A stretch of 64,000 nt of DNA from assembly GCF_002854065.1 (NCBI RefSeq), contig NZ_CP024147.1; one strand, 5' to 3'. The notes below the pieces were generated by a model. That model was not told the DNA's origin. It saw only the letters and a program-made list of their open reading frames with translations, and did not search any database. Source of the DNA: Escherichia coli. Lineage in GTDB: Bacteria > Pseudomonadota > Gammaproteobacteria > Enterobacterales > Enterobacteriaceae. This document shows positions 12,971 through 62,035 of this stretch, piece after piece (the stretch's first letter is position 1; every line of letters begins with the position of its first letter). Position numbers and translations under genes: made by a program.

Positions 12971-13510
12971 ATGAAACAGGAAGTGGAGAAGTGGCGACCT
13001 TTTGGACATCCGGATGGTGATATTCGTGATTTATCATTTCTTGATGCTCATCAGGCTGTCTACGTTCAGCATCATGAGGGCAAAGAGCCTTTAGAGTATC
13101 GCTTCTGGGTTACCTACTCTCTTCACTGCTTCACAAAAGATTATGAACATCAGACTAACGAAGAAAAACAATCGTTAATGTACCACGCGCCTAAAGAATC
13201 TCGTCCCTTCTGCCAGCACCGTTATAACTTAGCGCGCATACACTTAAAAAGAACCATTTTGGCGCTGCCAGAAAGCAACGTTATTCATGCTGGGTATGGT
13301 AGCTATGCCGTGATTGAAGTGGATTTAAACGGAGGAGACAAGGCATTTTACTTTGTTGCGTTCAGGGCTTTCAGGGAAAAGAAAAAACTTCGTTTGCATG
13401 TAACTAGCGCTTATCCCATTTCTGAAAAACAGAAAGGTAAATCAGTGAAATTTTTCACCATTGCCTACAACTTATTGAGAAATAAGCAGCTTCCTCAGCC
13501 CTCAAAATAA
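12971..13510 (+). CDS. yjaZ: stationary-phase/heat-shock associated protein YjaZ (HtrC)
   Basis: 179-aa ORF with RBS aaggaacgagaATG; position directly after rpoC matches yjaZ. Confidence 0.85.
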   Translation: MKQEVEKWRPFGHPDGDIRDLSFLDAHQAVYVQHHEGKEPLEYRFWVTYSLHCFTKDYEHQTNEEKQSLMYHAPKESRPFCQHRYNLARIHLKRTILALPESNVIHAGYGSYAVIEVDLNGGDKAFYFVAFRAFREKKKLRLHVTSAYPISEKQKGKSVKFFTIAYNLLRNKQLPQPSK

Positions 13511-13512
13511 CA

Positions 13513-13535
13513 AAACCCACCTTAAGGTGGGTTTC
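13513..13535. terminator. hairpin terminator overlapping yjaZ stop; stronger on minus strand
   Basis: Stem cccacc/ggtggg with ttaa loop; plus strand followed by only TTT, minus strand followed by TTTTGTTATTTT. Confidence 0.6.
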
Positions 13536-13837
13536 GCCAGAGAATTATCTCTGGTATTCAGAACGCCATTACCGGACTTTGCCTTGACCTTGCGATAATC
13601 GCAGGTTGCGGGATGTCTGAATTTCTTCAGTCTGCTGCATCCTGGAAGATGAGAACATGTGTTCTTATTTTCGTCTCTATCATAGTTGAGTATTTACTCT
13701 CTTACAATCAGATCTCTTTCATTGCTCAACAGGCGATGGCTTCAGACTTTGCATTACGGAATTTTTAAGAAAGGCAGGGCGAAACGAGGAAGAAGCTTTT
13801 CGCCCTGGACAACATTCCTGCTGACGGCACTACCATA

Positions 13838-23745: not shown

Positions 23746-24447
23746 GTGGCAGTGAACAGTTTTAACGAAGGGGTGGTTTCACCCCTTTTGTCTTTCTGGC
23801 GTCGATCATTGATGCTGGCTGGCGCTCTGTTTCTCACTGCCTGTAGCCACAACTCTTCACTTCCTCCCTTTACCGCCAGTGGATTTGCTGAAGACCAGGG
23901 CGCGGTACGTATCTGGCGAAAAGACAGCGGCGATAATGTGCATCTGCTTGCCGTGTTTAGCCCGTGGCGCAGTGGCGATACCACGACGCGAGAGTATCGC
24001 TGGCAGGGCGATAACCTCACGCTCATCAATATCAATGTTTACAGCAAACCGCCGGTGAACATTCGCGCGCGTTTTGACGATCGCGGTGATCTGAGCTTTA
24101 TGCAACGTGAATCCGATGGGGAAAAGCAGCAGCTTTCTAACGACCAAATCGATTTATACCGTTATCGTGCTGATCAGATCCGCCAGATTAGCGATGCCTT
24201 ACGTCAGGGGAGAGTCGTGCTGCGCCAGGGGCGCTGGCATGCGATGGAACAGACCGTGACCACCTGTGAAGGGCAAACCATTAAACCTGATTTAGATTCG
24301 CAGGCGATAGCGCATATCGAGCGCCGCCAGAGCCGCTCTTCTGTTGATGTCAGCGTGGCATGGCTGGAAGCGCCCGAAGGTTCGCAATTACTGTTAGTGG
24401 CAAACTCTGATTTCTGTCGCTGGCAACCCAACGAGAAAACGTTCTGA
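23746..24447 (+). CDS. yjaH: putative lipoprotein YjaH (DUF1481); true start probably downstream at 23812
   Basis: Track ORF is 233 aa, but the hupA terminator hairpin lies in its first 20 codons and an in-frame ATG at 23812 begins a lipoprotein-like signal MLAGALFLTAC-S. Confidence 0.8.
   Translation: MAVNSFNEGVVSPLLSFWRRSLMLAGALFLTACSHNSSLPPFTASGFAEDQGAVRIWRKDSGDNVHLLAVFSPWRSGDTTTREYRWQGDNLTLININVYSKPPVNIRARFDDRGDLSFMQRESDGEKQQLSNDQIDLYRYRADQIRQISDALRQGRVVLRQGRWHAMEQTVTTCEGQTIKPDLDSQAIAHIERRQSRSSVDVSVAWLEAPEGSQLLLVANSDFCRWQPNEKTF
23769..23796 (+). terminator. rho-independent terminator after hupA
   Basis: Stem aggggtg/cacccct with gttt loop followed by TTTGTCTTTC. Confidence 0.8.
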
Positions 24448-24448
24448 T

Positions 24449-24868
24449 TTACCAGTGGCCCATACCCATATGACCGCCACCACCGCAGCCGCCGTAACCC
24501 ATTCCGGTACCGCGCGGAATACCCGCTTCAGCCATCGCAATATCTCGTTTCACCCGTAACTCATCTAACGACTGACGCAAATTCTCCATCTCTTTGGCGA
24601 CCGCGTTAATTTTGCTGCTATCCGGTGGGTTCGCGGCTAACAGGGCATTGTATTCATAACGCTTCGTCACCAGTTGCTGTTGCAGTGCGCTGCTTTGAGC
24701 GTAAAAGTCATTATGGATTTTCTGCCACGCTGTCTGTTGTTCGCTGGTCAAAGGCGCGGCATTTTGCTGCCACATACCGTGTCCGCCGTGAGCAAATGCA
24801 GATGTCGATCCCATCGCCATTGCTGAAAGCGCCATCATCACCAGGGCAATTTTCGTGTTCCGTTTCAT
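24449..24868 (-). CDS. zraP: zinc resistance-associated periplasmic protein ZraP
   Basis: Signal peptide MKRNTKIALVMMALSAMAMGSTSAFA, His/Gly-rich ends (HGGHGMW...GGCGGGGHMGMGHW); track ORF is N-terminally extended. Confidence 0.9.
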   Translation of the reverse strand: MKRNTKIALVMMALSAMAMGSTSAFAHGGHGMWQQNAAPLTSEQQTAWQKIHNDFYAQSSALQQQLVTKRYEYNALLAANPPDSSKINAVAKEMENLRQSLDELRVKRDIAMAEAGIPRGTGMGYGGCGGGGHMGMGHW

Positions 24869-25105: not shown

Positions 25106-26482
25106 ATGCGTTTTATGCAACGTTCTAAAGACTCCTTAGCTAAATGGTTAAGCGCGATCCTCCCCGTGGTCATTGTTGGGCTGGTAGGGTTGTTTGCGGT
25201 GACGGTGATTCGCGATTATGGGCGCGAGACTGCCGCCGCCAGACAAACGCTGCTGGAAAAAGGCAGTGTACTTATTCGCGCTCTTGAATCCGGCTCGCGC
25301 GTCGGCATGGGGATGCGCATGCATCATGCGCAGCAGCAGGCCTTACTGGAAGAAATGGCCGGGCAGCCTGGAGTACGTTGGTTTGCGGTCACGGATGAAC
25401 AAGGAACAATCGTGATGCATAGCAACTCCGGCATGGTGGGAAAACAGCTTTATTCCCCGCAGGAAATGCAGCAGTTACATCCGGAAGATGAAGAAGCGTG
25501 GCGGCGGATCGATAGCGCAGACGGTGAGCCTGTTCTGGAAATTTATCGCCAGTTTCAACCGATGTTTGCTGCTGGAATGCACCGGATGCGCCATATGCAG
25601 CAGTATGCCGCGACACCACAAGCAATTTTCATCGCTTTCGACGCCAGTAATATTGTGAGTGCCGAAGATCGTGAGCAGAGAAACACCCTGATTATCCTCT
25701 TCGCCCTGGCGACGGTCTTGCTGGCAAGCGTATTGTCATTCTTCTGGTATCGCCGCTATCTGCGCTCGCGCCAGCTTCTACAAGATGAAATGAAGCGCAA
25801 AGAGAAGCTGGTGGCGCTGGGGCATCTTGCGGCAGGCGTTGCCCACGAAATCCGTAACCCACTTTCCTCGATTAAAGGACTGGCGAAATACTTTGCCGAG
25901 CGCGCGCCTGCAGGGGGAGAAGCGCATCAACTGGCGCAGGTGATGGCGAAAGAGGCCGACCGTTTAAACCGCGTGGTAAGCGAGTTGCTGGAACTGGTTA
26001 AGCCAACGCATCTGGCTTTGCAGGCGGTGGATCTCAACACGCTGATTAACCACTCATTACAGCTGGTAAGCCAGGATGCAAACAGCCGGGAGATCCAGTT
26101 ATGCTTTACCGCCAACGACACATTACCGGAAATTCAGGCCGATCCGGACAGGCTGACTCAGGTCCTGTTGAATCTCTATCTCAATGCTATTCTGGCGATT
26201 GGTCAGCATGGCGTGATTAGCGTGACGGCCAGCGAAAGCGGCGCGGGCGTGAAAATCAGCGTTACCGACAGCGGTAAGGGAATTGCGGCAGATCAGCTTG
26301 AAGCCATCTTCACTCCGTACTTCACCACCAAAGCCGAAGGCACCGGATTGGGGCTGGCGGTCGTGCATAATATTGTTGAACAACACGGTGGTACAATTCA
26401 GGTCGCAAGCCAGGAGGGAAAAGGCTCAACGTTCACCCTCTGGCTTCCGGTCAATATTACGCGTAAGGACCCACAAGGATGA
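25106..26482 (+). CDS. zraS: sensor histidine kinase ZraS
   Basis: 458-aa ORF with two TM segments, H-box (HEIRNPLSSIKG) and ATPase G-boxes (DSGKGI, GTGLGLAVV). Confidence 0.93.
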   Translation: MRFMQRSKDSLAKWLSAILPVVIVGLVGLFAVTVIRDYGRETAAARQTLLEKGSVLIRALESGSRVGMGMRMHHAQQQALLEEMAGQPGVRWFAVTDEQGTIVMHSNSGMVGKQLYSPQEMQQLHPEDEEAWRRIDSADGEPVLEIYRQFQPMFAAGMHRMRHMQQYAATPQAIFIAFDASNIVSAEDREQRNTLIILFALATVLLASVLSFFWYRRYLRSRQLLQDEMKRKEKLVALGHLAAGVAHEIRNPLSSIKGLAKYFAERAPAGGEAHQLAQVMAKEADRLNRVVSELLELVKPTHLALQAVDLNTLINHSLQLVSQDANSREIQLCFTANDTLPEIQADPDRLTQVLLNLYLNAILAIGQHGVISVTASESGAGVKISVTDSGKGIAADQLEAIFTPYFTTKAEGTGLGLAVVHNIVEQHGGTIQVASQEGKGSTFTLWLPVNITRKDPQG

Positions 26483-27804
26483 CGCACGATAATATCGATA
26501 TTCTGGTGGTGGATGATGACATTAGCCACTGCACTATTTTGCAGGCTTTACTGCGCGGCTGGGGCTATAACGTCGCGCTGGCGAACAGCGGGCGACAGGC
26601 GCTGGAGCAGGTGCGGGAACAGGTTTTTGATCTTGTGCTTTGCGATGTGCGAATGGCGGAGATGGACGGCATCGCCACGCTGAAAGAGATCAAAGCGTTA
26701 AACCCGGCAATTCCGGTGCTGATTATGACTGCGTACTCCAGCGTCGAGACGGCGGTAGAGGCACTGAAAACTGGGGCGCTGGATTATCTCATCAAGCCGC
26801 TGGATTTCGATAACCTACAGGCGACGCTGGAAAAGGCGCTCGCGCATACGCACAGTATTGATGCTGAAACACCTGCGGTGACTGCCAGCCAGTTCGGTAT
26901 GGTCGGTAAAAGCCCGGCGATGCAACACCTGCTCAGTGAAATCGCCCTCGTCGCGCCATCGGAAGCCACGGTGCTGATCCACGGCGATTCCGGCACCGGT
27001 AAAGAGCTGGTCGCCAGGGCGATTCACGCCAGTAGCGCACGTAGCGAAAAACCGCTGGTAACGCTCAACTGTGCGGCACTTAACGAATCCTTGCTGGAAT
27101 CTGAATTGTTCGGTCACGAAAAAGGGGCGTTTACTGGAGCCGATAAACGCCGGGAAGGGCGCTTTGTTGAGGCGGACGGCGGCACGCTGTTTCTCGATGA
27201 AATTGGCGATATCTCGCCGATGATGCAGGTGCGTCTGCTGCGTGCGATTCAGGAGCGCGAAGTTCAGCGTGTCGGTAGCAACCAGACTATCTCGGTTGAT
27301 GTCCGGCTGATTGCGGCGACCCATCGCGATCTTGCCGCAGAGGTGAATGCCGGGCGTTTTCGCCAGGATCTCTACTATCGCCTGAATGTGGTGGCGATTG
27401 AAGTACCATCGCTGCGGCAACGGCGGGAAGATATCCCTCTGCTGGCTGGCCATTTTCTTCAGCGCTTTGCCGAGCGTAATCGCAAGGCGGTAAAAGGCTT
27501 TACGCCACAGGCGATGGATTTGCTGATCCACTACGACTGGCCGGGAAATATTCGTGAACTGGAAAACGCGGTGGAACGGGCGGTAGTGCTGCTGACCGGG
27601 GAATATATTTCCGAACGCGAGCTGCCGCTGGCGATTGCCGGTACGCCGATCCCGCTGGGGCAAAGTCAGGATATTCAGCCGCTGGTGGAAGTCGAAAAAG
27701 AAGTGATTCTGGCGGCACTGGAGAAAACGGGCGGCAACAAAACCGAAGCCGCCCGTCAGTTAGGGATCACGCGCAAAACGCTATTGGCAAAACTGTCGCG
27801 TTAG
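26479..27804 (+). CDS. zraR: sigma-54-dependent response regulator ZraR
   Basis: 441-aa ORF: receiver domain, AAA+ sigma-54 activator motifs ([14 protein letters not shown]), C-terminal HTH; 4-bp overlap with zraS. Confidence 0.95.
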
Positions 27805-29090
27805 TTCTGCTCGCGTTCGATGGCGCGCCAACCGATATCTTTCCGGCAGAAGCAATCATCCCAGTGGATATCGGTCATTAAGGCGTAGGCGCGTTTCTGC
27901 GCTTCTGCCACGGTATGACCCAGCGCGGTGACGCACAGTACGCGCCCGCCGCTGGTTACCACCTGCTCGTCATCCGCCAGTTTCGTGCCCGCGTGGAACA
28001 CTTTGCCGTCAGCCACTTCTTCCAGCGGCAGGCCGTGGATCACATCGCCGGTGCGGTAATCGCCCGGATATCCACCCGCAGCCATCACCACGCCGAGAGA
28101 AGCACGTTCATCCCACTCTGACGTTTTCTCGTCCAGTTTGCCTTCACAGGCCGCCAGGCAGAGCTCAACCAGATCGGACTTCATGCGCAGCATAATCGGC
28201 TGGGTTTCCGGATCGCCAAAGCGGCAGTTAAATTCAATAACCTTCGGATTGCCCTGTTTGTCGATCATCAGGCCCGCGTAGAGAAAACCGGTGTAGGTGT
28301 TGCCTTCCGCCGCCATGCCTTTCACGGTTGGCCAGATAATACGTTCCATGGTGCGCTGATGAACTTCATCGGTTACTACCGGCGCGGGGGAGTAAGCGCC
28401 CATCCCGCCCGTGTTTGGTCCGGTATCTTTATCGCCTACGCGTTTGTGATCCTGGCTGGTAGCCATCGGCAGCACATGCTCGCCGTCCACCATCACGATA
28501 AAGCTCGCTTCTTCGCCATCGAGGAACTCTTCGATAACGATGCGATGACCCGCGTCGCCAAAAGCGTTGCCCGCCAGCATATCGTGAACAGCCGCTTCCG
28601 CTTCTTCCAGCGTCATCGCCACGATAACGCCTTTCCCGGCAGCCAGACCGTCCGCTTTAATGACGATTGGCGCGCCTTTCTCACGCAGATACGCCAGCGC
28701 AGGTTCTACCTCGGTGAAGTTCTGGTATTCCGCCGTAGGGATCTTATGGCGGGCCAGGAAATCTTTGGTAAACGCTTTTGAGCCTTCCAGTTGGGCCGCA
28801 CCTGCGGTTGGGCCGAAGATTTTCAGCCCGGCGGCGCGGAAGGTATCGACCACGCCTTTCACCAGCGGCGCTTCCGGGCCGACGATGGTCAGATCAATCT
28901 TTTCGTTTTGTGCGAAATCCAACAGCGCCGGGATATCGGTCACGCCGATAGCAACGTTTTGCAGCGCGGGTTCCAGCGCAGTGCCTGCATTACCCGGAGC
29001 AACAAAAACAGTCTCAACCAGCGGCGACTGGGCCGCTTTCCAGGCCAGCGCGTGCTCGCGCCCGCCGTTACCAATCACTAATACTTTCAT
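27801..29090 (-). CDS. purD: phosphoribosylamine-glycine ligase PurD
   Basis: 429-aa ORF MKVLVIGNGGREHALAWKAAQS, recognised PurD. Confidence 0.96.
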   Translation of the reverse strand: MKVLVIGNGGREHALAWKAAQSPLVETVFVAPGNAGTALEPALQNVAIGVTDIPALLDFAQNEKIDLTIVGPEAPLVKGVVDTFRAAGLKIFGPTAGAAQLEGSKAFTKDFLARHKIPTAEYQNFTEVEPALAYLREKGAPIVIKADGLAAGKGVIVAMTLEEAEAAVHDMLAGNAFGDAGHRIVIEEFLDGEEASFIVMVDGEHVLPMATSQDHKRVGDKDTGPNTGGMGAYSPAPVVTDEVHQRTMERIIWPTVKGMAAEGNTYTGFLYAGLMIDKQGNPKVIEFNCRFGDPETQPIMLRMKSDLVELCLAACEGKLDEKTSEWDERASLGVVMAAGGYPGDYRTGDVIHGLPLEEVADGKVFHAGTKLADDEQVVTSGGRVLCVTALGHTVAEAQKRAYALMTDIHWDDCFCRKDIGWRAIEREQN

Positions 29091-31307: not shown

Positions 31308-32849
<1,542 letters not shown>

Positions 32850-39862: not shown

Positions 39863-41167
39863 ATGAAAACCCGTACACAACAAATTGAAGAATTACAGAA
39901 AGAGTGGACTCAACCGCGTTGGGAAGGCATTACTCGCCCATACAGCGCGGAAGATGTGGTGAAATTACGCGGTTCAGTCAATCCTGAATGCACGCTGGCG
40001 CAACTGGGCGCGGCGAAAATGTGGCGTCTGCTGCATGGCGAGTCGAAAAAAGGCTACATCAACAGCCTCGGTGCACTGACTGGCGGTCAGGCGCTGCAAC
40101 AGGCGAAAGCGGGTATTGAAGCAGTCTATCTGTCGGGATGGCAGGTAGCGGCGGACGCTAACCTGGCGGCCAGCATGTATCCGGATCAGTCGCTCTACCC
40201 GGCGAACTCGGTGCCAGCGGTGGTGGAGCGGATCAACAACACCTTCCGTCGTGCCGATCAGATCCAATGGTCCGCGGGCATTGAGCCGGGCGATCCGCGC
40301 TATGTCGATTACTTCCTGCCGATCGTTGCCGACGCGGAAGCCGGTTTTGGCGGTGTCCTGAATGCCTTTGAACTGATGAAAGCGATGATTGAAGCCGGTG
40401 CAGCGGCAGTTCACTTCGAAGATCAGCTGGCGTCAGTGAAGAAATGCGGTCACATGGGCGGCAAAGTTTTGGTGCCAACTCAGGAAGCTATTCAGAAACT
40501 GGTCGCGGCGCGTCTGGCAGCTGACGTGACGGGCGTTCCAACCCTGCTGGTTGCACGTACCGATGCTGATGCGGCGGATCTGATTACCTCCGATTGTGAC
40601 CCGTATGACAGCGAATTTATTACCGGCGAGCGTACCAGTGAAGGCTTCTTCCGTACTCATGCGGGCATTGAGCAAGCGATCAGCCGTGGCCTGGCGTATG
40701 CGCCATATGCTGACCTGGTATGGTGTGAAACCTCCACGCCGGATCTGGAACTGGCGCGTCGCTTTGCACAAGCCATCCACGCGAAATATCCGGGCAAACT
40801 GCTGGCTTATAACTGCTCGCCGTCGTTCAACTGGCAGAAAAACCTCGACGACAACACTATTGCCAGCTTCCAGCAGCAGCTGTCGGATATGGGCTACAAG
40901 TTCCAGTTCATCACCCTGGCAGGTATTCACAGCATGTGGTTCAACATGTTTGACCTGGCAAACGCCTATGCCCAAGGCGAGGGTATGAAGCACTATGTTG
41001 AGAAAGTGCAGCAGCCGGAATTTGCCGCCGCGAAAGATGGCTATACCTTCGTATCTCACCAGCAGGAAGTGGGTACAGGTTACTTCGATAAAGTGACGAC
41101 TATTATTCAGGGCGGCACGTCGTCGGTTACCGCACTGACGGGGTCCACTGAAGAATCGCAGTTCTAA
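39863..41167 (+). CDS. aceA: isocitrate lyase
   Basis: [38 protein letters not shown]..., 434 aa, catalytic KKCGH motif present. Confidence 0.96.
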
Positions 41168-41350: not shown

Positions 41351-45242
<3,892 letters not shown>

Positions 45243-45558
45243 TTAAATATCTCATTGTTTATTGATGTCTTGAATTTTAACTATCAGAACAGTGAAAAAA
45301 TTTAATATGATAACAAGTAAAGAAATATCATAAATCGCTCAATCTCATAATGCAGCCGTAAAAGTTTCGGTGGAATGAGATCTTGCGATTTTGTTAATAA
45401 TTAAGTGGTTTGATGTTTAAAAATAATGCTGAGTTAATAAAAGTGTGTGAAGTGTATGACAATAAGTTATTTTGGCGTCAATGCGATTAACAGACACCCT
45501 TATTCTATTGCCACTCAGGTATGACGGGCAGAATATTGCCTCTGCCCGCCAGAAAAAG

Positions 45559-59338: not shown

Positions 59339-60211
59339 ATGCTGCCCGACTCATCAGTCCGTTTAAATAAATACATCAGCGAAAGCGGAATTTGCTCACG
59401 CCGCGAAGCGGATCGCTATATCGAGCAAGGCAATGTGTTCCTTAATGGCAAGCGAGCCACCATTGGCGATCAGGTGAAACCCGGCGACGTTGTGAAAGTA
59501 AACGGTCAGTTGATTGAACCTCGGGAAGCCGAAGATTTGGTACTTATCGCCCTGAACAAGCCCGTCGGTATTGTCAGCACCACCGAAGATGGCGAGCGCG
59601 ATAACATTGTCGATTTTGTTAACCACAGCAAACGCGTGTTCCCGATTGGCCGCCTGGATAAAGACTCCCAGGGGCTGATTTTCCTCACCAATCACGGCGA
59701 TCTGGTGAATAAGATCCTCCGTGCGGGTAACGATCATGAGAAAGAGTATCTGGTGACGGTCGATAAACCGATTACCGATGAATTTATTCGTGGTATGGGG
59801 GCGGGGGTGCCGATCCTCGGGACGGTGACTAAAAAGTGCAAAGTCAAAAAAGAAGCGCCGTTTGTCTTCCGCATTACCCTGGTGCAGGGGCTGAACCGTC
59901 AGATCCGGCGCATGTGCGAGCATTTCGGCTATGAAGTGAAAAAGCTGGAACGTACGCGCATTATGAACGTCAGCTTAAGCGGCATTCCGCTGGGAGAATG
60001 GCGCGATTTAACCGACGACGAGCTTATCGATCTCTTTAAGCTCATTGAAAATTCCTCTTCCGAGGCGAAGCCCAAAGCGAAGGCCAAACCGAAAACAGCG
60101 GGCATCAAACGTCCAGTCGTTAAGATGGAAAAAACGGCGGAAAAAGGCGGTCGCCCGGCGTCCAACGGTAAGCGTTTTACCTCGCCGGGGCGTAAAAAGA
60201 AGGGGCGCTAA
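59339..60211 (+). CDS. rluF: 23S rRNA pseudouridine synthase RluF
   Basis: 290-aa ORF with S4 domain and RsuA-family catalytic motif ([13 protein letters not shown]), lysine-rich C-terminal tail. Confidence 0.92.
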
Positions 60212-60484
60212 TCAGCGCCTGCCGCGCGTCGACGTATTTGCTGACCAGCTAAATGACGCTTCAGGATCCGGTTTATAAGCCTGCTTTTTCTTCAATTGGC
60301 GGGCTTTTTTTGCTTCAGCCTCACGCTCAACCATTAATTTATCGATGTAATCTTTCTTAATGCTGTTGGTTTCGGAGTTGGTCAGTACGCGACCATGCGC
60401 AATCCGCGCCCGATCCAGCAGTGTTTTAAGTTCACGCTGCTCGCGTTCAGTCATCTCTTTTTGGGTAATACGGGGGAGTGCCAT
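60212..60484 (-). CDS. yjbD: DUF3811 family protein YjbD
   Basis: 90-aa basic ORF MALPRITQKEMTEREQRELKTLLDRA; stop codon abuts rluF stop. Confidence 0.85.
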   Translation of the reverse strand: MALPRITQKEMTEREQRELKTLLDRARIAHGRVLTNSETNSIKKDYIDKLMVEREAEAKKARQLKKKQAYKPDPEASFSWSANTSTRGRR

Positions 60485-60582
60485 GATGGTGCCCTCAGTG
60501 AGCCAGAGAGTTCAGTGTACGGGAATTCGTTTGCGAGCAGAACTGATAATATTCCTTTGTTCTCTTCGGTAATGACTCCAAC

Positions 60583-61086
60583 TTATTGATAGTGTTTTAT
60601 GTTCAGATAATGCCCGATGACTTTGTCATGCAGCTCCACCGATTTTGAGAACGACAGCGACTTCCGTCCCAGCCGTGCCAGGTGCTGCCTCAGATTCAGG
60701 TTATGCCGCTCAATTCGCTGCGTATATCGCTTGCTGATTACGTGCAGCTTTCCCTTCAGGCGGGATTCATACAGCGGCCAGCCATCCGTCATCCATATCA
60801 CCACGTCAAAGGGTGACAGCAGGCTCATAAGACGCCCCAGCGTCGCCATAGTGCGTTCACCGAATACGTGCGCAACAACCGTCTTCCGGAGCCTGTCATA
60901 CGCGTAAAACAGCCAGCGCTGGCGCGATTTAGCCCCGACGTATCCCCACTGTTCGTCCATTTCCGCGCAGACGATGACGTCACTGCCCGGCTGTATGCGC
61001 GAGGTTACCGACTGCGGCCTGAGTTTTTTAAATGGCGGAAAATCGTGTTGAGGCCAACGCCCATAATGCGGGCGGTTGCCCGGCAT
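60583..61086 (-). CDS. insB: IS1 transposase InsB (expressed as InsAB by -1 frameshift)
   Basis: 167-aa [54 protein letters not shown], overlapping insA in -1 frame. Confidence 0.97.
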
Positions 61087-61280
61087 CCAACGCCATTCAT
61101 GGCCATATCAATGATTTTCTGGTGCGTACCGGGTTGAGAAGCGGTGTAAGTGAACTGCAGTTGCCATGTTTTACGGCAGTGAGAGCAGAGATAGCGCTGA
61201 TGTCCGGCAGTGCTTTTGCCGTTACGCACCACCCCGTCAGTAGCTGAACAGGAGGGACAGCTGATAGAAACAGAAGCCAC
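61005..61280 (-). CDS. insA: IS1 protein InsA
   Basis: 91-aa [46 protein letters not shown], zinc-finger plus HTH. Confidence 0.97.
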
Positions 61281-61330
61281 TGGAGCACCTCAAAAACACC
61301 ATCATACACTAAATCAGTAAGTTGGCAGCA

Positions 61331-62035
61331 TCACCCGTTGGTGCTTTCCCAGCTTAATGCCGCTGAGGTGGTTTTTATCATGACTTCTGTTCGGTAGCCT
61401 GCATCTTTGAGTTTTTTTAATGTTTGTAGCGGCGTAGCGGCATTACGAAATGTTCCTTCGACAACAATATTGAGTTTATTGGCTATGGCCCTCTCTATTG
61501 CACGTTCGACCGTTTCGCCGGAAAATTTTGCCGTATGGGTAACAAAATCGTCGCCATAAGTTTGATATATATAATTAAAATCAGGGTGTAGAAATCTGAA
61601 ATCATCACCATTAATAATCATTATATTATTCTTTGTTTCCCTTTTTGCTAATTCGATTAGGGCGGATTTTCCGGCTCCTGGTTGTCCACCTAAAACAAAA
61701 CCAATGGGACTCTGCTGGGATGTGACGTCATGGTTTGTCAGACGCTGCCAAATAGAATCAAAAGACGCTTTATTTTCTGAATGCGCAGTATTATTAAATT
61801 CACGCTGATACTTTTTTCTGACCTGCTGGAGGCGTAACTTTTCCTGTGTAAAATCAACAAGTTCTGCTTGAGTGGAATAAAGATTGTCGCGATAGCTGAC
61901 TAATTGTGATAGCTCATCGTCTGAGTCCTGAACTTGTGAGGAAAAACAACTGTCGACGATATTTGATAAAAACGCGATGCACTGACTGGCGCCGTTTAAA
62001 AGTGCATCCTTTTCCATTAAAGTAGCCATTAACAC
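61331..62035 (-). pseudogene. zeta-toxin-family P-loop kinase with N-terminal extension (EzeT-like), 3-prime end truncated by IS1
   Basis: Walker A GGQPGAGKS and colinear similarity to zeta/PezT toxins; stop codon TGA is formed by bases 3-5 of the IS1 inverted repeat. Confidence 0.7.

Follow-up and report, generated by a model that had tools for sequence, protein, structure and literature searches.

In the 64,000-nt stretch of the Escherichia coli genome analyzed here (the window), several pairs of genes face each other tail to tail, with their stop codons abutting, overlapping or separated by a single base. The question raised by this locus is whether such junctions make the paired transcripts run antisense into each other in a way that serves regulation, or whether the antisense transcription is an incidental result of compact packing. 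We consider it probable, at roughly three chances in four, that the pairs are ordinary compact tail-to-tail junctions, and that their antisense 3′ tails are a tolerated by-product, not a regulatory device. The eight genes concerned are listed below.

23752–24447, + strand: yjaH coding sequence, stop TGA at 24445–24447
24449–24868, − strand: zraP coding sequence, stop TAA at 24449–24451
26479–27804, + strand: zraR coding sequence, stop TAG at 27802–27804
27801–29090, − strand: purD coding sequence, stop TAA at 27801–27803
41351–43087, + strand: aceK coding sequence, stop TGA at 43085–43087
43056–45242, − strand: arpA coding sequence (espL4 in PGAP), stop TAA at 43056–43058
59339–60211, + strand: rluF coding sequence, 23S rRNA pseudouridine 2604 synthase, stop TAA at 60209–60211
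60212–60484, − strand: yjbD coding sequence, DUF3811, stop TGA (TCA on the + strand) at 60212–60214

A reading made from the sequence alone had described three of these junctions: the abutting stops of rluF and yjbD (gap 0), the 4-bp tail-to-tail overlap of zraR and purD (27801–27804, with the tetramer TTAG common to both stops), and the 32-bp overlap of aceK and arpA (43056–43087). All three were exact to the base, and the PGAP annotation agreed with them. A fourth tight pair, yjaH/zraP, with a 1-bp gap (24445–24451), had been overlooked. In the PGAP annotation of CUWW06, a genome matching window positions 40000–64000 with 100% identity and having some 3.2 kb of additional DNA in that region, the geometry and the gene names were identical to those of the window, save for the name of arpA. 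All eight genes are annotated in both K-12 and PGAP, and the gaps of the pairs are 0, −4 and −32 bp, with +1 bp for yjaH/zraP. It might still be supposed that one ORF of each pair was mis-called or extended. This suspicion could draw on arpA, the weakest of the eight genes, whose function is obscure, which is variably present and which is not expressed in BL21, and on the last residues of AceK, which are not conserved. Against it, stop codons are unambiguous, unlike starts, the eight genes are identical in K-12 and PGAP, and rluF and yjbD have the same ends in 76 species. The conservation of both frames up to their stops largely refutes the idea of an annotation artefact, which we regard as scarcely credible, and both ORFs of the pairs are taken as genuine genes.

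For a chance comparison, we used 200 kb of the K-12 genome from four places, which contained 30 convergent pairs of coding sequences. The gap was ≤ 1 bp in 4 of these 30 pairs (13%), all of them overlaps (−4, −4, −35 and −41 bp), and ≤ 3 bp in 7. Four of the seven convergent pairs in the window are tight (one-sided Fisher p = 0.027, post hoc and uncorrected), and this mild local excess is a point against reading the tails as a by-product; with the K-12 geometry, three of the seven pairs qualify (p = 0.11). The number of convergent overlaps in K-12 has been reported to be 58 (PMC2174442) to 75 (PMC4161906), at which 0.8–1.0 true overlaps would be expected in 64 kb, against the 2 of the window; the probability of finding 2 or more is 0.19–0.28. 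The typical form of a 4-nt convergent overlap is [CT]TA[AG] (PMC2174442; PMC4161906), in which both stops share the central TA, and the TTAG of zraR/purD fits this class. Based on the sample and the published counts, none of the junctions is of an unusual kind, and their clustering in the window exceeds expectation only mildly, if at all. The layout is already known: it has been catalogued genome-wide in E. coli, and three of the pairs have been listed by name. Compact convergent junctions are a documented feature of E. coli, and the significance of those described here is small and mostly a matter of bookkeeping.

The sequence-only reading had also argued that none of the pairs has room for a terminator, and that each transcript must therefore extend antisense into its partner. 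The premise is overstated: it assumes that a terminator has to be intergenic. Terminators can sit in the ORF of a neighbor, as shown by the hupA terminator (23767–23796), whose mapped 3′ end is 39 nt inside yjaH. A previous study had already asked where such overlapping genes terminate, and it counted 23 genes with a predicted intrinsic terminator among the 116 that take part in convergent overlaps in E. coli (PMC2174442). The conclusion fared better. Bicyclomycin-sensitive Rho termination regions have been mapped in MG1655 (Adams et al., 2021; PMC7815308, supplementary file 2), and five of them fall in these pairs: four on the + strand, at 4201402 (antisense to zraP), 4204911 (purD), 4220399 (arpA) and 4231569 (yjbD), and one on the − strand, at 4231091 (antisense to rluF). 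Relative to the K-12 gene ends, the peaks lie about 141, 266, 67, 343 and 268 nt, respectively, past the stop of the upstream gene. Their Rho scores are 17.2, 4.3, 3.0, 3.1 and 4.3, and the significance of the five regions ranges from p = 1e-5 down to 9e-85 (PMC7815308). Overlapping 3′ transcription is thus documented by the published K-12 data in five of the eight directions. The claim does not extend to each transcript, because no 3′ end or Rho region into the partner has been reported for purD, arpA or zraP. The same reading had proposed that it would fail if Rho stopped the transcripts inside their own coding regions, leaving no overlap; the published regions lie past the stops, in the partner genes. 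Over the 100 nt that follow each of the eight stops, the C/G ratio was 1.04–2.16, and it was highest for yjaH into zraP, the direction that also has the highest Rho score. The transcript data were all obtained in K-12, and K-12 and the window have different rluF/yjbD alleles.

The by-product reading can be put as the following sequence of events. The junctions would have originated neutrally, by the drift of stop codons, by ORFs extending to whichever stop came first and, at aceK/arpA, by the insertion or deletion of a segment whose edge falls there, and they would need no intergenic terminator. When the ribosome leaves at the stop, RNA polymerase would enter the partner gene and produce untranslated RNA with more C than G, which Rho would terminate within roughly 70–350 nt. 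The 3′ end of each mRNA would consequently be a short stretch antisense to the neighboring gene, because the polymerase would continue past the stop until Rho stops it. We infer that Rho behaves in the same way at the zero-gap rluF/yjbD allele of the window strain, and that the effect on expression is negligible.

The same overlapping transcription could instead be regulatory. If the pairs were convergent excludons, it would lower the expression of the partner through polymerase interference or through RNase III cleavage of the sense–antisense duplex, and it could link, for example, the zraSR zinc stress response to purHD and the aceBAK glyoxylate shunt to arpA. The pairs yjaH-zraP, zraR-purD and aceK-arpA are included in the “excludome” of MG1655, which takes in pairs whose overlap was seen in ≥ 50% of 58 transcriptomes, and they are among the 165 convergent pairs with overlapping transcription in Table 1 of the ExcludonFinder study, in which excludon pairs as a class were less often co-expressed in single cells and more syntenic (PMC12288877). 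Additionally, p19 captured one RNase III-type 21-bp duplex within rluF. This duplex was of low abundance and was located about 310–330 nt from the rluF stop, and no other p19 duplex naming these genes was found among the matches listed. Such a role is difficult to reconcile with the absence of arpA from a quarter of E. coli genomes and with the 132 bp that separate rluF from yjbD in a third of them, and Rho confines the antisense tails to a few hundred nucleotides. A literature search for mutual repression in these pairs found no pair-specific data. We consider regulation by these junctions unlikely, and retain the by-product reading.

For aceK/arpA, the origin of the overlap could be traced by comparing strains, which differ in the following feature.

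43063–45551, strand not applicable: variable segment comprising arpA and 309 bp, missing from about 25% of E. coli genomes

The left boundary of this segment lies inside the overlap of the two genes. The final 25 nt of aceK are within the segment, and the final 7 nt of arpA are in DNA that is also found in strains without arpA. In strain 536, which does not have the segment, aceK ends in ..RFSVRFV-stop, 16 bp from the convergent gene iclR, and the AceK tails that follow the conserved ..RQRFSVR[FY] vary freely between genera. The overlap arose by an indel and is an incidental by-product of the segment boundary; overlaps of this kind can be the scar of such a boundary and not a designed feature. 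The aceK mRNA is very scarce, and arpA is silent in BL21, the sole strain looked at, in which arpA is disrupted.

The rluF/yjbD junction has a longer history. In 76 of 78 Enterobacteriaceae species, the gap is 0 or there is a 4-bp overlap; the spacers in the two remaining species are 12 and 125 bp. The orthologues share TTAA, CTAA or TTAG (the −4 overlap) in 45 species. The RluF C-terminus, ..KKGR-stop, is invariant in the 76 species, and that of YjbD, ..RGRR-stop, is nearly so, with RGKR-stop in 2 of the 76. The junction is thus as old as the family. K-12 MG1655 is atypical, because a 132-bp insertion between rluF and yjbD hides the zero-gap state, which is therefore variable between strains. 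The insertion is present in 1,773 of 5,426 E. coli genomes (33%), K-12 included, and the zero-gap state is found in about two thirds of E. coli (∼67%) and in most Enterobacteriaceae. Because so many genomes carry the insertion, and because two other species have spacers, a zero gap is not required at this junction. Inverted repeats form the ends of the K-12 insert, and a GC hairpin lies within it. A second copy was sought in the window and in 237 kb of K-12 sequence and was not found, so that the insert was not assigned to a repeat family. As the insertion hides the zero gap, the K-12 transcript maps and the excludon lists under-report this pair.

Three further features were identified at this junction.

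60203–60220, both strands: stop-to-stop palindrome of rluF/yjbD, with a hairpin, GGGCGCT-AATC-AGCGCCT, that folds in both transcripts
60194–60203, − strand: T-rich run CCTTCTTTTT that follows the hairpin in the yjbD direction, a weak candidate for an intrinsic terminator of yjbD
60277–60311, + strand: hairpin with a 9-bp stem and a 12-nt loop (60277–60306) and a run of five T (60307–60311), inside yjbD, about 95 nt past the rluF stop

The hairpin at 60203–60220 has a predicted energy of about −11.3 kcal/mol on the + strand and −9.3 kcal/mol on the − strand, and the two stop codons are split between its 4-nt loop and its closing base pair. A stem-loop is thus encoded where the two transcripts meet, as in a collision-type terminator; no comparable centered hairpin was found at the aceK/arpA junction. 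On the yjbD strand, the candidate terminator has a stem of 6 bp, 5 of them G-C pairs, followed by CCUUCUUUUU, with two C before the U residues. The hairpin and the T-rich run straddle both stop codons and, since the run is complementary to the Lys/Gly codons AAAAAGAAGG of rluF, the candidate terminator of yjbD is made of rluF coding sequence. In a terminator scan, this candidate was 1 site against 1.9 expected in shuffled sequences, which alone is not significant, and in the scans of all three junctions terminator-like sites were no commoner than in shuffled sequence. The hairpin at 60277–60311 is a possible site for the pausing or termination of rluF read-through; no Term-seq 3′ end has been reported for it in K-12. 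Consensus scans detected no promoter-like sites at two of the three junctions, no Rfam RNA family mapped to any of them, and a literature search found no papers naming both rluF and yjbD.

The palindrome could be a selected bidirectional terminator composed of coding sequence, in which the hairpin would make polymerases from either side pause and head-on collision (Ju et al., 2019; Wang et al., 2022) would set both 3′ ends, or in which the hairpin and the Lys-codon T-run act as an intrinsic terminator of yjbD, or both. The hairpin is centered on both stops and can fold in both RNAs, with CCTTCTTTTT after it on the yjbD strand, and a stem-loop within the overlap is precisely what the collision model calls for (Wang et al., bioRxiv 10.1101/2022.10.23.513370). 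Each of the 76 species whose gap is 0 or −4 has both the palindrome and the A-rich Lys codons. The penultimate Arg of yjbD is encoded by a rare AGR codon, which lengthens the stem, in 69 of the 76 insertion-free species. The 76 of 78 species at a gap of 0 or −4, the invariant protein ends and the palindrome could together reflect selection, which is a point against the by-product reading. Among the species with the 4-bp overlap, only 2–3 pairs of the stem persist on the yjbD strand.

To evaluate selection on the hairpin, the last six codons of rluF and yjbD were recoded synonymously, with usage-weighted or uniform codon choice. The median percentiles of the natural hairpin were about 0.08–0.17. 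It ranked at about the 3rd–13th percentile in most Enterobacter-like species and up to the 24th in a few, whereas it ranked at the 23rd–80th in nine Escherichia/Pseudocitrobacter comparison loci, where it is no stabler than the recodings; the window junction was near the 10th. These percentiles were rejected as evidence for selection. The pairing third-codon positions (rluF Gly with yjbD Arg-2, and the terminal Arg codon of rluF with that of yjbD) showed no association indicative of covariation, and the entropy of synonymous third positions was no lower in the terminal codons than further upstream. Where the genes overlap by 4 bp, the shared stops leave no choice at the terminal third positions. 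A hairpin over two stop codons can come merely from two Arg-rich protein tails. We also considered the centers TAATCA (window) and TGATTA (K-12) as an inversion of the loop. This was rejected: all four of TAATTA, TGATTA, TAATCA and TGATCA occur among the species, which fits independent TAA/TGA changes in rluF and yjbD.

The K-12 transcripts also argue against a terminator here. K-12 retains a near-identical half-site, GGCGTTAATCAGCGCC followed by CCTTCTTTTT, as a hairpin with a T-run beside the stop of rluF, and no Term-seq 3′ end is listed at it. The 3′ end of yjbD in K-12 is instead at 4231270 (− strand), inside the 132-bp insertion, and is the only entry there in the Term-seq data of Adams et al. 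Collision-type terminators have been described as Rho-independent, unlike the read-through in K-12, which is bicyclomycin-sensitive on both strands at the allele with the 132-bp insert. We therefore regard it as improbable that the palindrome was selected as a terminator. It is equally doubtful that the palindrome and the terminal Lys codons of rluF form a terminator or pause element within two coding sequences, intrinsic for yjbD and a hairpin-guided collision site for rluF, that was kept throughout the history of the Enterobacteriaceae for setting both 3′ ends. If such an element existed, KKGR-stop, RGRR-stop and the rare AGR codon would be constrained by RNA as much as by protein function, and K-12 would hide the element because the insertion splits it. 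A functional hairpin would be a tidy case of a terminator encoded wholly in two coding sequences.

Finally, we compared the junctions with known systems. They resemble convergent excludons (Sesto et al., 2013; Toledo-Arana and Lasa, 2020; PMC12288877) in that opposite-strand neighbors overlap at their 3′ ends, and three of the four pairs have been named as such for MG1655. They differ in that reciprocal repression, the defining behavior of excludons, has been reported for none of these pairs, in that rluF-yjbD is absent from the K-12 list, and in that the overlap here takes in coding sequence and not UTRs alone. Collision terminators such as that of ynaJ-uspE (Ju et al., 2019; Wang et al., bioRxiv 10.1101/2022.10.23.513370) share with rluF/yjbD a stem-loop in both transcripts where the units meet. 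However, collision terminators are intergenic and Rho-independent, with sharp, overlapping mapped 3′ ends, whereas the rluF/yjbD stem-loop is in coding sequence, has no mapped ends at it and is at a junction that is Rho-sensitive in K-12. The class of convergent overlapping genes (Lillo and Krakauer, 2007, PMC2174442; Huvet and Stumpf, 2014, PMC4161906) matches the TTAG of zraR/purD and the rluF/yjbD orthologues, and aceK/arpA has a longer overlap in the same orientation. In the window, rluF/yjbD departs from this class because its stops abut, at one 4-nt symmetric indel from the overlapping form. With Rho-dependent termination past stops and antisense to genes (Adams et al., 2021; PMC7815308), there is no difference in kind: yjaH, zraR, aceK, rluF and yjbD all have more C than G downstream, and their bicyclomycin-sensitive regions are five entries among several hundred in the published table.

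In the window, which corresponds to the E. coli chromosomal segment from tufB through pgi, three pairs of convergent genes had been described as ending without spacing or with an overlap, and this geometry proved exact to the base. The stops of rluF and yjbD abut (gap = 0), zraR and purD overlap tail to tail by 4 bp (the common tetramer TTAG), and aceK and arpA overlap by 32 bp. A fourth tight pair, yjaH/zraP, with a gap of 1 bp, had been overlooked by the sequence-only reading. The genes and stops are as follows.

59339-60211, + strand, rluF, with stop TAA at 60209-60211
60212-60484, - strand, yjbD, with stop TGA (TCA on the + strand) at 60212-60214
27802-27804, + strand, stop TAG of zraR
27801-27803, - strand, stop TAA of purD
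43085-43087, + strand, stop TGA of aceK
43056-43058, - strand, stop TAA of arpA ("espL4" in PGAP naming)
24445-24447, + strand, stop TGA of yjaH
24449-24451, - strand, stop TAA of zraP

The same geometry was found in the PGAP annotation of CUWW06, a genome with 100% identity to window 40000-64000, yet with ~3.2 kb of additional DNA there, and in the K-12 annotation, except for rluF/yjbD, which has a 132-bp spacer in K-12. That the tight junctions are artefacts of annotation is barely credible. A CDS and an sRNA also abut tail to tail at 13510-13672, where the stop of yjaZ (13510) is 1 nt away from the end of the sroH sRNA (Rfam match 13512-13672, - strand).

As a reference for the frequency of such pairs, we used 30 convergent CDS pairs from four arbitrary 50-kb stretches of the K-12 annotation. 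Overlaps occurred in 4 of the 30 pairs (-4, -4, -35, and -41), three more had gaps of 2-3 bp, and the others were 8-257 bp apart, so that gaps of ≤ 1 bp accounted for ~13% of the sample. In the window, 4 of the 7 convergent pairs had gaps of ≤ 1 bp (one-sided Fisher p = 0.027, uncorrected, in a window chosen for these pairs); with the K-12 geometry (3 of 7 pairs), p was 0.11. Published totals for convergent overlaps in K-12 are 58 (PMC2174442) and 75 (PMC4161906), from which 0.8-1.0 true overlaps would be expected in 64 kb; the window contains 2 (P = 0.19-0.28). Based on these frequencies, each junction is of a common type, and the fact that they cluster is a minor curiosity at best.

Because Rho requires a C-rich, untranslated stretch of RNA of ~70-80 nt, it would not be expected to terminate transcripts inside the translated region of the gene itself. 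The C/G ratio in the first 100 nt beyond all eight stops in the window was 1.04-2.16, with the maximum for yjaH reading into zraP, the direction that also has the top Rho score. The 3' ends and bicyclomycin-sensitive Rho regions of MG1655 have been mapped (Adams et al. 2021, supplementary file 2; PMC7815308), and five of these regions are listed below in K-12 coordinates; the scores come from 800-nt windows, so the peak positions are approximate, and the distances are taken from K-12 gene ends.

4201402, + strand, antisense to zraP, score 17.2 (strongest of the four pairs), ~141 nt beyond the upstream stop
4204911, + strand, antisense to purD, score 4.3, ~266 nt beyond the upstream stop
4220399, + strand, antisense to arpA, score 3.0, ~67 nt beyond the upstream stop
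4231569, + strand, antisense to yjbD, score 3.1, ~343 nt beyond the upstream stop
4231091, - strand, antisense to rluF, score 4.3, ~268 nt beyond the upstream stop

The claim that each transcript extends into its partner was thus supported for yjaH, zraR, aceK, rluF, and yjbD, and these data contain no entry for read-through in the opposite direction from purD, arpA, or zraP. The opposite outcome, in which Rho ends the transcripts inside their own coding regions and no antisense overlap arises, is unsupported, since the K-12 regions lie antisense within the partner gene. The lack of room for a terminator, also put forward from the sequence, is no real constraint, because terminators can sit in the coding sequence of a neighbor: of the 116 genes that make up the E. 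coli convergent overlaps, 23 had predicted intrinsic terminators (PMC2174442). A local case is hupA/yjaH, in which the intrinsic terminator of hupA (23767-23796) lies across the yjaH start and the mapped 3' end (K-12 4200605) falls 39 nt into the yjaH ORF. We consider neutral compaction combined with Rho to be the best-supported account (probability about 0.75). Untranslated read-through would be terminated by Rho inside the partner gene, so that the junctions would need no spacer, and the resulting short antisense tails would be tolerated.

The K-12 spacer (between the rluF boundary at 4231226 and the yjbD boundary at 4231359) aligned as an insertion precisely between both stops, at window 60211/60212. 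The insert (K-12 4231227-4231358; 32228-32359 of the MG1655 locus, L003) is bounded by inverted repeats of ~9-13 bp and contains a GC-rich hairpin. A query across it was fully covered in 1773 of the 5426 complete E. coli genomes (33%), and most of the remaining genomes gave a two-piece match spanning 101 bp, i.e., zero gap. A YjbD probe returned 80 loci from 80 Enterobacteriaceae species, of which 78 had rluF and yjbD in convergent orientation. Among these 78, the distance between the stops was 0 for 31 species and -4 for 45, with 12 bp and 125 bp in the two exceptions. This distribution (76 of 78 species) indicates that the zero/-4 state is both ancestral and the majority form, and that K-12, the source of all transcript mapping, is the odd one out.

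The tight rluF/yjbD junctions form a palindrome. RluF ended in KKGR-stop in 76 of 76 species, and YjbD ended in RGRR-stop in 74 and RGKR-stop in two. Because both genes finish with the codon string GG-CGN-stop, their tail-to-tail placement unavoidably yields an inverted repeat, which reads GGGCGCTAA joined to TTAGCGCC at a gap of 0 and GGGCG-TTAA-CGYCT at -4; these forms are separated by a symmetric 4-nt indel with no effect on either protein. Two hairpins were considered here.

60203-60220, junction hairpin GGGCGCT-AATC-AGCGCCT, predicted to fold in both transcripts (~-11.3 kcal/mol on the + strand, ~-9.3 on the - strand)
60277-60311, + strand, hairpin (9-bp stem, 12-nt loop) followed by T5, inside yjbD, ~95 nt beyond the rluF stop

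The junction hairpin raises the possibility that rluF/yjbD carries a selected bidirectional or intrinsic terminator within its coding sequence. On the yjbD strand, this hairpin precedes CCTTCTTTTT, which is complementary to the rluF Lys and Gly codons, and a terminator scan flagged this site, but not significantly (1 site vs. 1.9 in shuffled sequence). The sole curated Term-seq end near the pair, 4231270 (-), which is also the single 3' end mapped for yjbD in K-12, is within the K-12 insert, and no 3' end is listed for the copy of the hairpin and T-run retained in K-12 (PMC7815308). The T-run of the 60277-60311 hairpin is the complement of yjbD Lys codons; this hairpin falls outside the loop-size limit of the consensus scan and was hence missed by it, and K-12 Term-seq reported no end at its site. 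When the last six codons of rluF and yjbD were recoded synonymously, the stability of the real sequence ranked only at the ~3rd-13th percentile for most Enterobacter-like species, at the 23rd-80th for nine Escherichia/Pseudocitrobacter comparison loci, and near the 10th for the window. The third-codon positions that would pair showed no covariation (rluF GGA/GGG occurred with yjbD AGA/AGG in equal proportions), and synonymous entropy in the terminal codons was not below that of upstream codons. These three sequence-based tests thus gave no evidence of selection on the hairpin. At the penultimate Arg codon of yjbD (60215-60217), 69 of 76 species used AGG or AGA, which are rare, and none used CGY, although G and A interchange freely in the third position; AGR lengthens the junction stem, but covariation did not support stem lengthening as the reason for this codon. 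A selected terminator is therefore quite improbable, and the palindrome most likely follows from the Arg-rich tails conserved in both proteins.

Upstream of yjbD, an IS1 copy (60568-61335, terminal repeat 61313-61335) lies 83 bp from the start codon; a truncated ORF resembling zeta toxin (61331-62035) comes next. The extra DNA of CUWW06, the closest genome, includes slipin-family and DNA-polymerase-beta-superfamily genes here. Given the insertion and the missing DNA, the yjbD promoter may be altered in this strain.

The complete aceK/arpA junction was present in only 4088 of the 5426 E. coli genomes, the rest matching just up to window 43062. In strain 536, which has no arpA, aceK encodes 574 aa and ends 16 bp from the convergent iclR, and 22 bp take the place of window 43063-45551 (arpA plus 309 bp), a segment missing from ~25% of E. 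coli genomes. The strain-536 aceK is 4 codons shorter, and its product ends in RFSVRFV-stop, differently from that of the window. The final 7 nt of arpA, including the stop, belong to sequence that both types share, and the final 25 nt of aceK lie in the variable segment. The segment boundary falls within the overlap, and therefore each ORF reads across it to the first stop met. After the conserved RQRFSVR[FY], AceK tails vary freely among genera, and several are short and similar to that of strain 536, which points to the arrangement without arpA as the older. The overlap itself is a boundary scar of indel origin.

Expression at this junction is very low: the aceB:aceA:aceK product ratio is ~0.3:1:0.003, and arpA is unexpressed in BL21, where it is disrupted. 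The K-12 annotation and Term-seq also place the AceK-int sRNA and a strong premature 3' end ~370 nt into aceK (K-12 4218879-4218963; window 41634-41718 by offset), so most aceBAK transcripts stop short of arpA.

Functional excludons are an unlikely explanation of the four pairs. ExcludonFinder (2025; PMC12288877) named yjaH-zraP, zraR-purD, and aceK-arpA among 165 convergent excludons, defined by overlapping transcription in ≥ 50% of 58 MG1655 transcriptomes, and as a class such pairs show rarer single-cell co-expression and higher synteny. The accessible part of its list does not include rluF-yjbD, and our literature search found no paper naming both genes, which is consistent with the K-12 spacer; nor did it find any experiment on these particular pairs. 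In the p19 capture work, almost no dsRNA came from convergent 3' overlaps; for these genes, the part of its tables that was searched gave one low-abundance RNase III-type duplex, within rluF, yet 87% of genes yielded some dsRNA. Tight convergent junctions such as these are real but ordinary and already documented, and our analysis adds modestly to that record a stop-to-stop rluF/yjbD palindrome conserved across the family, an atypical K-12 allele, and an indel origin for the aceK/arpA overlap.
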